Notes under the pieces: generated by a model
Databases searched by the model: none
What the model was told of the DNA's origin: nothing
Seen by the model: the letters and a program-made list of their open reading frames with translations, nothing else
Translations under genes and position numbers: made by a program
Source: Candidatus Melainabacteria bacterium 17Bon1m
GTDB lineage: Bacteria > Cyanobacteriota > Vampirovibrionia > Obscuribacterales > Obscuribacteraceae
NCBI GenBank assembly: GCA_032128875.1
Contig: JAVLKG010000001.1
Coordinates: 1,049,453 to 1,113,452 of the forward strand
Reading direction: 5' to 3'
Length of the DNA: 64,000 bases
In this document: in pieces, positions 4,269-9,988 of the stretch
How the letters are laid out: each line of letters opens with the position of its first letter
Position numbering within the stretch: the stretch's first letter is position 1

Positions 4269-5855
4269 ATGACTTTCTCCAGACCTTCCAAACCAATTTG
4301 GGATGACTCAACGGCGATGCCTGAATTTCAGCCGCTGGCGACTAATACCAGTTGTGATGTCGCGATTATCGGAGCGGGGGTGACGGGCTTGACCACCGCT
4401 TATTTGCTTGCGAAAGAAGGAAGGGATGTTCTAGTCCTCGATGACGGAGATGTTACTGGCGGGCAGACCGGGCGCACGACAGCCCACTTAACCGCTTTTA
4501 TGGATTTTCGCTACGAAGAACTTTTGCGCATGTTTGGCCAAGAAAAGACCACGAAAATTGCTGCAAGCCAGGTTGATGCTGTCGACGAAATCGGACACAT
4601 CGTTGCGCAAGAGCGTATCGATTGTGAATTCGCCAGGGTAGACGCATTTCTTTTGCTGGGGCGCGAAGACAAGACAGAGACACTGTTTAACGAGATGCAA
4701 GCGATGCAGAGTGTCGGGTTTGCAAATGTTGTTTTTGGCGAAACATCTCTTTGGGGGCACAGGGAAATTCCTTATCTGATGCTCAATCATCAAGCGCAAT
4801 TGGATATTCGCAAGTATATGTATGGTCTTGTTGCGCGTATTACAGAACTTGGTGGTCGAATACATTCGGGCACTCATATTGCTAGCTTCGAGAAGGGACA
4901 GCCTGCCGAACTTACGACTTCAAACGAACGCAAGATTACGGCTAACCATGTCGTGGTGGCTACCCATACTCCAATTACCGATTTGATTTCTATCCACACA
5001 AAACAGACCGCATATCGCACCTATGTGATCGGTGCGCAGGTCGAGCAAGACATCATCCCGCCAGGACTCTTCATGGACACGGAAGACCCTTATCATTACA
5101 TTCGCAGCACTCAATTGGGCGACAAAATGTATGTGATTATCGGAGGTGAAGATCATCGAACCGGGCAGGAGTCTGACTATGATGAGCGCTACGACAAATT
5201 GGAAGATTGGGCTAGAGAAATGCTGCCACAACTGGGCCCAATAGAATATCGCTGGTCAGGTCAAGTTTACGAACCTGTCGACGGTCTTCCCTTTATTGGC
5301 AAGGATCCAGGCCAGTCGGACAACTTCTACGTTGCCACCGGATATTCGGGCTCTGGTATCACCAATGGCACTATGGCTGCAAAGCTTATTAGAGACCAAA
5401 TTCTTGGAAAGGAAAATGAGCTGTTGGAGATTTACGACCCTGGTCGTAAGACCGCTGCAGCATTACCTGAATACGTAAAAGAAAACATCAATTCCGTAAG
5501 TCAGTATTCAAAGCATTTTTCAGGAGGGCAGGTTGCTTCTGCTGATGAAATTCCACCAGGTGAGGGAGCTGTCATCGCTAGAGGCGTTCAACACTTTGCT
5601 GTCTATAAGGATGCTAACGGGTCTGTTATTGAATGTTCTGCGGTATGCCCACATGCAAAAGGGATTGTCTGTTGGAACACCGCTGAGAAGACGTGGGACT
5701 GTCCAGCACACGGCTCCCGATTTAGCTGTACCGGTGAAGTGATTGACGGCCCTGCAAATACTAATCTGGAAGCGAAGCAAATCAGTGGTGAGCAAGATGA
5801 GTTTATGCAGATTCAATTGCCCCTGAAGAATCCGACCAAACTGCCTAGTCTCTGA
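4269..5855 (+). CDS. FAD-dependent oxidoreductase with C-terminal Rieske [2Fe-2S] domain (YhfW-like)
   Basis: GAGVTGLTTA FAD motif, GRTTAHLT, Rieske CPHAKG...WDCPAHGSRF. Confidence 0.9.
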   Translation: MTFSRPSKPIWDDSTAMPEFQPLATNTSCDVAIIGAGVTGLTTAYLLAKEGRDVLVLDDGDVTGGQTGRTTAHLTAFMDFRYEELLRMFGQEKTTKIAASQVDAVDEIGHIVAQERIDCEFARVDAFLLLGREDKTETLFNEMQAMQSVGFANVVFGETSLWGHREIPYLMLNHQAQLDIRKYMYGLVARITELGGRIHSGTHIASFEKGQPAELTTSNERKITANHVVVATHTPITDLISIHTKQTAYRTYVIGAQVEQDIIPPGLFMDTEDPYHYIRSTQLGDKMYVIIGGEDHRTGQESDYDERYDKLEDWAREMLPQLGPIEYRWSGQVYEPVDGLPFIGKDPGQSDNFYVATGYSGSGITNGTMAAKLIRDQILGKENELLEIYDPGRKTAAALPEYVKENINSVSQYSKHFSGGQVASADEIPPGEGAVIARGVQHFAVYKDANGSVIECSAVCPHAKGIVCWNTAEKTWDCPAHGSRFSCTGEVIDGPANTNLEAKQISGEQDEFMQIQLPLKNPTKLPSL

Positions 5856-5918
5856 AAACTCCATGCCCTCGCCGTTTAAGCGGGTTATAGACGCTGGGGT
5901 TTTCCCTATATCTGTAAA

Positions 5919-5946
5919 GGAACATGTAAAGCAATTCTGGGTCTTT
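5919..5946 (+). promoter_or_regulatory. ECF/sigmaE-type promoter GGAAC-N16-GGTCTTT
   Basis: ggaac atgtaaagcaattctg ggtcttt, upstream of small ORF 5978. Confidence 0.7.
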
Positions 5947-5977
5947 AAGTCCATAAGTGGAGATGGAGGCGACGAAA

Positions 5978-6181
5978 ATGAAAAGCAGTTCCGAACAAAA
6001 TATGAATGAAACGTCTTATTCAGTCGTGCAATTGAACAATGATTTGAAGCGAATGCTGTCTGTTCAATTCAAGGAATTCATTCACCACATTGAAGATCAC
6101 GAGCGCGTTGCGAGCATCGACTTTACTCGACCGAGACGCACCATTGCTTGGATCTCCATGTACGATAGAAAAATCGCTTAG
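5978..6181 (+). CDS. Small hypothetical protein (67 aa)
   Basis: SD ggagg precedes ATG 5978; it has its own ECF-type promoter and a hairpin follows the stop. Confidence 0.6.
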   Translation: MKSSSEQNMNETSYSVVQLNNDLKRMLSVQFKEFIHHIEDHERVASIDFTRPRRTIAWISMYDRKIA

Positions 6182-6290
6182 TCGCTGCCCGTCTACTTTA
6201 ATTGCGTTGAAACGTGAGAGAAGTAGACGAGCAAGTTTGAGTTAATATCTCGGATACAGAAGTGTTTTGTCACATCGGTGTGCCCAACTT
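6182..6290 (-). ncRNA. Candidate ECF-dependent small RNA (or small-peptide transcript)
   Basis: Lies downstream of the minus-strand promoter at 6321-6294; no ORF with an SD; hairpin at the 3' end. Confidence 0.4.
6185..6236. terminator. Inverted repeat / possible shared terminator hairpin
   Basis: gcccgtctactt ... aagtagacgagc; large loop and no strong U-tract. Confidence 0.45.
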
Positions 6291-6293
6291 TGG

Positions 6294-6321
6294 GTAGACC
6301 TCCGTCAGCATACTAAGTTCC
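6294..6321 (-). promoter_or_regulatory. ECF/sigmaE-type promoter GGAAC-N16-GGTCTAC (minus strand)
   Basis: Reverse complement reads GGAAC TTAGTATGCTGACGGA GGTCTAC. Confidence 0.65.
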
Positions 6322-6429
6322 CAACTTACCAAGTTAGATTTTCCGCCTTCTTTACTTGATGCAGAGGCGCCACGTTTTAGAGCACCGTTCAACTATTTCT
6401 AAAGTTGGCTCATCCATGACTCGGATGCG

Positions 6430-6458
6430 GGAACTGTTACCCTCACGCGTTGGTCCCA
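6430..6458 (+). promoter_or_regulatory. ECF/sigmaE-type promoter GGAAC-N17-GGTC
   Basis: ggaac tgttaccctcacgcgtt ggtccca, upstream of the BON / membrane protein / csbD unit. Confidence 0.55.
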
Positions 6459-6550
6459 CAACTGCGAGTTCAATAATGCCTTCGTTGCACTATTGCTCAC
6501 TGGCATTTATTACCGCAAAACAATCAACTCTATGAGAGGAGTTTTGTCAT

Positions 6551-7144
6551 ATGAAGACCCGAGCCTTTTTCACCCTTTCATCCGTTTTGGCGTCGTTAGC
6601 TCTCACTATCGCTCCAGTCCTTGCAAACAACGGTGTGGAGTTGAAAAATCGACTTGATTCTGCGGAAAGCAGAGGGTCGGTTTCGCGAGAAGCGCTTGTA
6701 CAGTTGCGGGCGGATCAGACAGCACTCGAGAAGCAGGAAGCGGACATTCGCGCTAAATACGATGGCTTGTTGCCGGCTCGAAAGGCTGTAAAGCTTACCA
6801 AAGAGCGGAAAAAGCTGATTGCAAAACTCGACAAAATCGAGTCGAGAAAGCCTGATAACACAGCTCAGAATTACGGTGATGCCCGCAAAGAGTCTCCGAC
6901 ACCACAAGTGCAATCGGGAAAGAAAGCCGACATCGATCGATTGCTTGCGATCAGAAAAGAGTTAGTTGGCGACAAGAGTCTTTCCAGCAACGCCAAGAAT
7001 GTGAAAGTCGTTGTGATCAACGGCACTGTCACTTTGCGTGGTGTAGTGAACAGTGAGTCCGAAAAGGTGAAAGTGGCCAGTGCTGCGCGTAAGTTCGCAG
7101 ATGATTCCAAAGTTTTGGATGAATTGGAGGTAAACACTCAATAA
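6551..7144 (+). CDS. Exported BON-domain protein
   Basis: Signal peptide (..APVLA); C-terminal BON motif LSSNAKNVKVVVINGTVTLRGVVNSESEK. Confidence 0.85.
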   Translation: MKTRAFFTLSSVLASLALTIAPVLANNGVELKNRLDSAESRGSVSREALVQLRADQTALEKQEADIRAKYDGLLPARKAVKLTKERKKLIAKLDKIESRKPDNTAQNYGDARKESPTPQVQSGKKADIDRLLAIRKELVGDKSLSSNAKNVKVVVINGTVTLRGVVNSESEKVKVASAARKFADDSKVLDELEVNTQ

Positions 7145-7168
7145 CTGAGCCTTGTAGGAGGGTTTGTA

Positions 7169-7696
7169 ATGTCAATTGCAGTTGTATGTTTGGTGAATGA
7201 TTTGATGCAGGCTGACACCATTGTTGGCAGCTTGAAGAACGCAGGTTTTAGAAGCGCGGATATCTCTTTGCTTATGCCCGACACCGCGGGCTTCAGAGAC
7301 GCCGGTTATGAAAAACACAGCAAGGCTCCGGAAGGCGCCTCCGCAGGCGCTGGTGCAGGTATGGTGCTAGGTGGTGCTTTGGGTTGGCTGGCTGGTGTGG
7401 GTGCTCTTGCATTGCCTGGTCTCGGTGCATTCATTGCTGCCGGGCCGATCATGGCAGCATTGAGTGGTGCCGCTGTTGGTGGCGCGGTGGGAGGAATGAG
7501 TGGCGGTTTGATCGGGCTTGGGATGCCGGAGATTGAAGCAAAACAATACGAAGGCAAGATGAAAGAGCTGAATCGCATTTTCATTTCTGTTCACACCGAG
7601 AATAAGGACGAGGTAAAAGTAGCCGAGAAGATTTTCAAAGATCTCGGAGCTAAAGACGTAAACGCTATTCACGAGGAAAAGGCGCATACACGCTAG
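7169..7696 (+). CDS. General-stress-type membrane protein with glycine zipper (DUF3341/YflT-like)
   Basis: APEGASAGAGAG..LGGALGWLAG...FIAAGPIMAAL...GLGMPEIEAKQYE. Confidence 0.75.
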   Translation: MSIAVVCLVNDLMQADTIVGSLKNAGFRSADISLLMPDTAGFRDAGYEKHSKAPEGASAGAGAGMVLGGALGWLAGVGALALPGLGAFIAAGPIMAALSGAAVGGAVGGMSGGLIGLGMPEIEAKQYEGKMKELNRIFISVHTENKDEVKVAEKIFKDLGAKDVNAIHEEKAHTR

Positions 7697-7743
7697 TTTT
7701 TAAACCTTACTGAAAATTTGAAAAACTAACAAAGGAGATAGAT

Positions 7744-7941
7744 ATGAACTGGGATCAAATTGAAGGCAATTGGAAACAATTCGAAGGTAAAGTAAAAACT
7801 CAGTGGGGCAAACTCACTGACGATGACTGGAAACTGGTCGAAGGAAAGAAAGATCAGCTGCTCGGAAAAATTCAAGAGCGTTATGGTCATAGTAAAGAAG
7901 CGGCCGAAAAGGAACTCGATGAGTTTTGCGCAAGGCTCTAA
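7744..7941 (+). CDS. csbD: CsbD family general stress protein
   Basis: MNWDQIEGNWKQFEGKVKTQWGKLTDDD...GKIQERYG; SD aaggag. Confidence 0.92.
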   Translation: MNWDQIEGNWKQFEGKVKTQWGKLTDDDWKLVEGKKDQLLGKIQERYGHSKEAAEKELDEFCARL

Positions 7942-7979
7942 TTGCGTTTGCCTCAGTTAGATTGCTTCATAAAAGCAGG

Positions 7980-8009
7980 AAAAAGTCCCGCCTATCGCGG
8001 GACTTTTTT
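7980..8009. terminator. Bidirectional intrinsic terminator
   Basis: aaaaagtcccgc ctatc gcgggactttttt. Confidence 0.85.
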
Positions 8010-8053
8010 GTGAGCTGAAATAACTAATTTGACTCTTTTTTAGCTCACGCGTG

Positions 8054-8138
8054 AAATACAAGAATAAGAAATCGGCGTAGGCACATGCAAACCTACGCCG
8101 ATTTCTATTGTCTTATGAGTTATCGATCCTTGTTCTCT
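8054..8138 (-). ncRNA. Candidate ECF-dependent small RNA (~85 nt) ending in a 15-bp hairpin
   Basis: Promoter at 8171-8144, then an A-rich single-stranded segment, a perfect stem AGAAATCGGCGTAGG/CCTACGCCGATTTCT and a U-rich tail. Confidence 0.5.
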
Positions 8139-8143
8139 GATTA

Positions 8144-8171
8144 CTGGACTAAGCGTCTATACCAAAGTTCC
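8144..8171 (-). promoter_or_regulatory. ECF/sigmaE-type promoter GGAAC-N16-AGTCCAG (minus strand)
   Basis: Reverse complement reads GGAAC TTTGGTATAGACGCTT AGTCCAG; shares GTTGGGAACTT with the 6321 site. Confidence 0.6.
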
Positions 8172-8308
8172 CAACCAAAAAAAGAAATTTTGTTTTTTGC
8201 GCGATTTTAGATCTTTGGTTCCGAGAGACAGCCCTGGTCCAATTTTCTCCAATTGGGTAGAATTGGCTCAGCTGTATCCGGAGTTCTTTGAATTGAAGAT
8301 TGTTGCGT

Positions 8309-9988
<1,680 letters not shown>

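Follow-up and report, generated by a model that had tools for sequence, protein, structure and literature searches.

Bacterial antisense promoters are mostly unconserved and are thought to be noise, and a conserved one therefore stands out (PMC3419515). The tested case from the lineage nearest to ours is as_nblA of heterocyst-forming cyanobacteria, which acts in cis only, by transcriptional interference, from an antisense promoter that lies 3′ of a small regulatory gene and reads back over it (PMC13283749). In Bacillus subtilis, the SigB-dependent SR7/S1136 starts from a general-stress-sigma promoter in an intergenic gap and is convergent to rpsD (PMC7834092). Listeria has a SigB excludon at mogR / lmo0675-0677 (PMC7154746), and the sigmaE sRNAs MicA, RybB, MicV, VrrA, and MicL combine a conserved ECF-type promoter in or near a gap with a conserved seed, an intrinsic terminator and Hfq dependence (PMC6694218, PMC4102768). 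Type I toxin–antitoxin modules, finally, pair a small gene with a convergent non-coding transcript (PMC6563280). Our literature search, outside which most subscription journals lay, returned no paper joining Melainabacteria with a sigma factor and a small RNA and none joining Vampirovibrionia with a sigma factor, and Obscuribacter went unmentioned among the matches.

Here we consider P1, a minus-strand ECF-type promoter in a window of 64,000 nucleotides (the whole stretch of DNA analysed, G000:C1:1049453-1113452) of the 7.55-Mb genome of Candidatus Melainabacteria bacterium 17Bon1m, G000 below. P1 is probably a genuine convergent ECF promoter, conserved among relatives although the RNA it would make is not. 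It lies in a stress-type cluster comprising DUF2383, a GFO oxidoreductase, a hemerythrin-domain gene, an FAD/Rieske oxidoreductase, a 67-aa gene, a BON-domain gene, a 175-aa gene and csbD. The arrangement is that of as_nblA, but the latter is plentiful in the absence of induction and does not follow the inducing signal, whereas P1 and the promoter facing it share the ECF motif; moreover, as_nblA is backed by Northern blot and mutants, while P1 is known here from sequence alone (PMC13283749). P1 likewise resembles SR7/S1136 in converging on a neighbor from an intergenic gap under a stress sigma, but in SR7 a conserved 39-aa ORF comes with a ribosome-binding site and the RNA ends at an intrinsic terminator, and the frame and hairpin downstream of P1 are unconserved (PMC7834092). 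The Listeria excludon is matched only by the layout in the relatives G003 and G007 (PMC7154746), where a stress-sigma transcript would run antisense to a 115-aa gene and one RRM gene and then sense for a second RRM gene. In the present window no minus-strand gene follows P1 for kilobases, and its transcript would thus have no mRNA role there. With the sigmaE sRNAs P1 shares the promoter type and location, but not the conserved seed or the terminator; a second promoter, P2, fits the MicL layout much better, with its own promoter at another gene's 3′ end and a shared terminator-like hairpin (PMC6694218, PMC4102768). Of the type I modules P1 has the small gene and, by prediction, the convergent transcript, but the protein is not hydrophobic and most members of its family lack a convergent promoter (PMC6563280). 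The features in question, by position in the window, are these:

5919 to 5945, plus strand: ECF-type promoter serving the 67-aa gene, GGAAC-N17-GTCTT, pointing toward P1 from 402 bp away; of a kind found before 32 of 38 family loci
5978 to 6181, plus strand: gene faced by P1; its 67-aa product is soluble and helical and belongs to an unnamed family
6182 to 6289, minus strand: initial ~107 nt of the predicted P1 transcript, ahead of the stop codon of the 67-aa gene; unconserved, without Rfam match
6186 to 6233, no strand assigned: hairpin, from folding, arm complementarity and comparison with G011
6193 to 6273, minus strand: GTG-initiated frame of 26 codons, regarded as a chance occurrence; an ATG-TGA start-stop lies at 6275-6270
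6295 to 6321, minus strand: P1, ECF-type promoter, GGAAC (6321-6317), 17 nt, GTCTA (6299-6295), with a predicted start near 6289; counterpart in 7 of 8 complete same-genus loci
6430 to 6457, plus strand: ECF-type BON-operon promoter, GGAAC-N18-GTCCC, in back-to-back orientation to P1
6551 to 7941, plus strand: BON operon, with a BON-domain gene (6551-7144), a 175-aa gene without Pfam match (7169-7696) and a csbD-like gene (7744-7941)
8058 to 8138, minus strand: candidate sRNA under P2, with an 11-mer (8127-8117), a 16-bp stem–loop (8106-8067) and a U-rich tail
8145 to 8171, minus strand: P2, second convergent ECF-type promoter, 3′ of a CTP-synthase-like gene and facing csbD

The CTP-synthase-like gene that P2 follows we take, from its sequence, to be pyrG. 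Both promoters reported in an earlier, sequence-only reading of this DNA are in place: its minus-strand GGAACTT (6321-6315) and GGTCTAC (6300-6294) contain GGAAC-N17-GTCTA, and the back-to-back plus-strand promoter at 6430 is GGAAC-N18-GTCCC, the two −35 boxes lying 109 bp apart. The 67-aa gene's own ECF-type promoter at 5919 was absent from that reading.

GGAACT-N14-17-GTCYA, a pattern picked after P1 had been seen, occurs three times in the window against 0.17 expected, a count reached in none of 100 shuffles. Genome-wide, GGAAC-N-GTCTA has 19 matches at a spacer of 17 against 1–9 at nine other spacers, and with a looser −10 the G000 genome holds 131 sites at spacer 17 against 30–58 at spacers of 14, 15, 16, 19, and 20. 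By crude in-house gene calls, 95 of these 131 are intergenic (10–17 at control spacers), and 78 of the 95 point into a same-strand gene. The motif marks a genuine ECF-sigma regulon, of which P1 is a putative member. Among the 17 sigma-70 region-2 matches in the genome are five related ECF-type paralogues, the most conserved of which scores above the ECF superfamily cut-off and below every equivalog cut-off. Convergent sites that remain without an ORF after small-ORF assignment number 10 at spacer 17 and 3–6 elsewhere, a modest excess, so that such a site in one genome alone is weak evidence. A scan for sigma-70 promoters and terminators gave nothing above shuffles. The regulon as a whole comprises about 100 or more sites, those in the window lying at 937, 3442, 5919, 6430, and 50963 on the plus strand and at 6321 and 8171 on the minus strand. 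Elsewhere, four minus-strand ECF sites are followed by a strong hairpin without a clear ORF (G000:C12:117481, C3:197144, C1:563079, and C13:68691) and are further non-coding candidates.

Ten loci upstream of the BON promoter were examined, eight of them complete and distinct (L113, nearly identical to G007, was left out of the count, and G001 ends after 81 nt). A minus-strand site lies 53–109 bp behind the BON promoter in seven of the eight, namely in G000, G011, G007, G003, G008, G002, and G005; the eighth, L112, whose gap is just 133 nt, has no P1 counterpart. The first five carry the strict motif, while in G002 the spacer is 18 nt long and in G005 the −10 is a GTCA variant, so that two of the seven sites depend on a relaxed pattern adopted only after these variants had been seen. 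The BON promoters of G011 and G001 likewise contain GTCA, for which spacer 17 shows an enrichment (46 vs. 10–14). The chance expectation per locus is ~0.0007 for the strict and 0.004 for the relaxed motif; since the genomes are kin, the seven sites represent one origin followed by retention rather than seven events. The boxes look selected because the site was kept in seven of eight loci while its spacer drifted to 38% identity, and between G000 and G011 the boxes are identical with 6 of 17 spacer positions changed. As the relatives' sites were located by pattern, the identity of the boxes is partly by construction. In all seven genomes P1 points at the 3′ terminus of a plus-strand gene, whose stop lies about 20–130 nt away. 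In G002, G003, G007, and G008 the site further sits within a plus-strand stem–loop (top 0–2% of 95 regulon sites), and RNA structure may therefore add to its conservation. A first candidate in G005 was dropped, as it overlapped a different conserved element; the actual site lies at 88 bp.

The DNA that P1 would transcribe has drifted. Mean identity over the first 30 nt past the predicted start is 35%; with gaps allowed (five genomes), the same stretch reaches 0.48 against 0.45 for shuffles, whereas the corresponding 30 nt under P2 reach 0.95. The ATG-TGA start-stop and the 26-codon frame described by the sequence-only reading are both present, and the hairpin it placed after the frame is real, but the frame runs through the hairpin. 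The two 13-nt arms (6186-6198 and 6221-6233) are 92% complementary, and on the minus strand, where a G–U pair makes the stem fully paired, the fold has −21.3 kcal/mol (z −7.1), a stability found in none of 200 shuffles. The hairpin lies ~55–105 nt downstream of P1, and the 111-nt downstream region as a whole folds at z −3.6. No U-tract adjoins the hairpin on either strand, and it has no second copy in the genome. G011, the closest relative, is 83% identical over the region; its arms carry four substitutions in 26 positions, none compensatory, and the energy is −8.0 kcal/mol. The frame, whose GTG lies ~16 nt past the predicted start, has no ribosome-binding site and no Pfam or PADLOC match, is broken by insertions in G011 and absent in G003, G007, and G008, and is judged a chance frame. 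Between 5000 and 7500 no terminator-like site was found. In a crude scan, the P1 strand was free of such sites over 2382 nt in G000 and over at least 826 nt in G011, G007, and G002, and the available sequence of G003 and G008 held none either; on the plus strand there is none within 700 nt of the start of the 67-aa gene. An Rfam search, which had been proposed along with the earlier reading, returned no match for the P1 RNA. Across the whole window only a tRNA reaches the gathering score, and 5800-8400 holds a single, sub-threshold match at 7955-8042.

What P1 faces is a gene that had been called an orphan and proves to belong to a family of 84 clusters at 50% identity, found in 42 of the 104 genomes of the taxonomic family; its close homologues are labeled Candidatus Melainabacteria or Obscuribacterales. 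Members range from 53 to 160 aa, mostly 55–97 aa, around a helical core with invariant Arg, Leu, Gln, and Glu (structure model pLDDT 68.8), and the 67-aa protein has no match in Pfam, NCBIfam, and PADLOC family searches or in fold searches. None of the 84 exceeds a 19-residue hydropathy of 1.6, the closest family member having a maximum of 0.12. An Ala-Ala C-terminus, found in 1.3% of genome genes, ends 36 of the 84, and 61 have a final Ala; these Ala-Ala ends are reminiscent of a ClpXP degradation tag. For the idea that the protein is an anti-sigma factor, a predicted complex with the most conserved ECF sigma scored 0.02 (mark 0.32), which speaks neither for nor against it. The ECF site before the gene is usual in the family (32 of 38 loci vs. 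0–2 per spacer in controls; 21 by the strict pattern). A convergent ECF site within 400 nt occurs at only 4 of the 38 (controls 0–1; three by the strict pattern), all in this genus, in a count that covers ECF-type sites only. Antisense control is thus a local addition and not a family trait, which argues against a toxin–antitoxin pair. Family members were also seen <10 kb from an ECF sigma gene in G015, G024, G044, G096, and G109, as read from coordinates.

The faced gene itself has changed within the genus. In G000, G011, G005, and G002 it is the 67-aa gene; in G003, G007, and G008 it is a 115-aa gene that stands behind an RRM gene. The small gene is parted from P1 by a cassette of about 1.4–1.6 kb in G003 and G007, where another RRM gene, on the minus strand, lies ~1.2 kb downstream of P1; the G008 contig stops short of it. 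The tree places G002 and G005 outside the clade that carries the cassette (bootstrap 99; it resolves no order inside that clade), and the arrangement in which P1 faces the small gene is therefore probably the older state. Searches for cassette remnants in the G000/G011 gap stayed inside the shuffle range in 12 of 12 comparisons. As regards the cassette itself, it consists of two divergent RRM genes and the 115-aa gene, which belongs to no Pfam family (L029:7407-8816, L030:8814-10227, L034:1-682); it fills the gap in G007 and G003 and is partly visible in G008. More distant copies occur in G000 (C2:88122-88811 and C1:317802-318089), and the 115-aa gene has a weak match to PADLOC PDC-S27 (E 0.011). 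The idea that P1 travels with the 115-aa gene was discarded, with no convergent site at 10 other copies (L101-L110, strict pattern; L109 ends at the gene).

We give roughly an even chance to P1 being a sigma-driven cis-antisense promoter that acts, by interference or through RNase III, on whichever gene it faces. Conserved boxes combined with free sequence are what regulation by interference or duplex decay would predict, the mode shown for as_nblA (PMC13283749) and reported for SR7/S1136 (PMC7834092). P1 would belong to a large ECF-sigma stress regulon in which, at this site, the act of transcription matters and not the sequence of the RNA. With the sigma active, polymerase would start near 6289, pass the U-less hairpin and run antisense through the 67-aa gene toward its ECF promoter, and that gene's expression would be lowered or shortened in cis, whether polymerases interfere with each other, RNase III cuts the sense–antisense duplex, or both. 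One sigma driving both promoters would turn the pair into a threshold or pulse device, and in relatives with the RRM-gene cassette between the small gene and P1, the cassette would be faced instead. A course through the 67-aa gene and its promoter would be the simplest, given the 2382 nt free of terminator-like sites, the lack of a Rho match in the genome (93% complete) and the presence of RNase III. As expected of a cis-antisense RNA, P1 is convergent on a gene with no terminator between them, save for the U-less G000 hairpin; this hairpin, far beyond chance, could end the transcript at ~6185 and leave just a 3′-UTR overlap. The loss of P1 in L112 and the scarcity of convergent sites among the family loci also count against the mechanism. 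We infer from the DNA that P1 fires, and likewise its start, its end, the identity of its sigma and its effect on the facing gene. The earlier suggestion of a sigma-dependent sRNA or antisense RNA is thereby divided: the convergent promoter is supported by motif enrichment, kept boxes and spacer drift, and the discrete sRNA is not, its sequence, hairpin, and frame being unconserved.

If P1 made a product, it might be a discrete trans-acting sRNA of ~105 nt, MicA/RybB-like, young and species-specific, that ends at the hairpin; the promoter, the strong hairpin behind it with its minus-strand stem completed by a G–U pair, and the folding of the 111-nt region are all consistent with this reading. 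We nevertheless hold it to be quite unlikely, as the first 30 nt contain no conserved seed, the G011 arms have decayed without compensation, no U-tract or Rfam match is found, and P2 in the same genomes displays the conserved-sRNA pattern that P1 lacks. The likeness to MicA and RybB drawn by the sequence-only reading thus fails on seed and terminator. Hfq (PF17209) had no match in G000, nor in a Synechococcus control, which makes this a weak test. A 26-residue peptide, as in the dual-function RNA SR7, is barely credible: an open GTG frame does begin shortly after the predicted start, yet it has no ribosome-binding site and does not persist even in G011. The same reading's comparison with type I toxin–antitoxin loci, in which the 67-aa protein would be toxic and the P1 RNA its antitoxin, draws on the small gene, the convergent promoter 107 nt from its stop and the presence of RNase III. 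It must be considered very unlikely, however, with 0 of 84 family members above the hydropathy threshold, 34 of 38 family loci without a convergent site within 400 nt, a cassette parting gene from promoter in G003 and G007, both promoters relying on the same stress sigma, and no PADLOC, Pfam, or NCBIfam match.

Other explanations dispense with a product as the cis-antisense reading does, but place the role of P1 elsewhere or deny it one. Divergent promoters can couple through supercoiling, and P1 might serve the BON promoter, either through the negative supercoils or polymerase that divergent transcription feeds to it or by blocking plus-strand read-through from upstream. The steady position of P1 behind the BON promoter in seven genomes while the facing gene changes, and the lack of a plus-strand terminator-like site over the 67-aa gene, favor such a service, but the spacing varies twofold without a fixed helical phase, and eight BON loci of other genera (L044-L051, strict −10 pattern) have no close back-to-back site. 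A proposed link between P1 and the 18-nt spacer of the BON promoter also fails, G005 having P1 together with a 17-nt spacer. We regard the BON service as doubtful. That P1 is a functionless relic, of a lost divergent gene or of the cassette's minus-strand RRM gene, is in our view unlikely. Genus g33 does have a protein gene that diverges from the BON operon, accompanied in L049 by an ECF site, and the minus-strand RRM gene downstream of P1 in G003 and G007 would fit the other origin. Against both stand boxes that outlasted the divergence of their spacer, with zero box changes against six spacer changes since the G000/G011 split, whereas the cassette origin is opposed by a site without a cassette in G002 and G005, outside the cassette clade, and by the clean G000 and G011 gaps.

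With boxes that persist across the genus while the transcribed DNA and the faced gene turn over, P1 offers a clean natural test of whether transcription itself regulates. A broader picture, which we put forward only tentatively, is that an ECF stress sigma maintains, behind the BON operon, an antisense promoter that yields no product and serves as a portable module, forming here an incoherent feed-forward loop on small, probably protease-tagged regulators and in sister species an excludon that switches RNA-binding paralogues, with P2 heading a true seed-bearing sRNA. If so, the stress response of this lineage would have both a cis (P1) and a trans (P2) RNA arm.

Beyond P1 itself, the analysis uncovered the unnamed sigma-linked small-protein family and, in P2, a stronger sRNA candidate. 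P2, 1.85 kb from P1, heads an element of ~80 nt with an invariant 11-mer and a conserved loop, which served as internal positive control for P1. Both of its single-stranded motifs are present in 8 of the 13 genomes of the genus, against 0 of 91 others in the family. The 16-bp stem shows pairing in 97% of cells and six pairs changed on both sides, a figure that none of 500 shuffles reaches, although five of the six come solely from G001. The element, which has no Rfam match, follows the pattern of the sigmaE sRNAs (PMC6694218, PMC4102768) and is a better sRNA candidate than P1. A target scan gave a best duplex of −20.2 kcal/mol, weaker than in five of five shuffles, and a role as CsrA sponge was set aside, the genome having no CsrA match. 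Among 5527 start regions, the sole perfect 11-nt complement to the P2 11-mer (about 0.06 expected by our own estimate) lies 2 nt before the ATG of a PucR-family regulator gene ahead of an ABC-transporter ATPase gene (G000:C3:1052375, L189:1876). It is kept in 7 of 8 P2-bearing genomes and in 3 of 5 without a detected P2, is missing in G001, and is a lead only, because the whole leader is conserved.

Several smaller observations concern the same intergenic regions. A small palindrome at 6283-6294 spans the predicted P1 start, recurs in G011 with an altered center and loosely in G007 and G003, and may be an operator or reflect a start-site preference. About 25–40 bp upstream of the BON promoter, at 6388-6409, lies an element with a short inverted repeat, identical in G011 and with a related motif in G002, G003, G005, G007, and G008, possibly a regulator site. 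RNA runs X1, X2, and X4, all from one sample, gave unstranded contigs of 9–57 kb; their depth, like that of run X10, was flat and uninformative about expression. At 8078-8096 the contigs of the three RNA runs break at the P2 hairpin, which run X10 spans; the break, given no weight as evidence because it comes from a single sample, could stem from cDNA fold-back.
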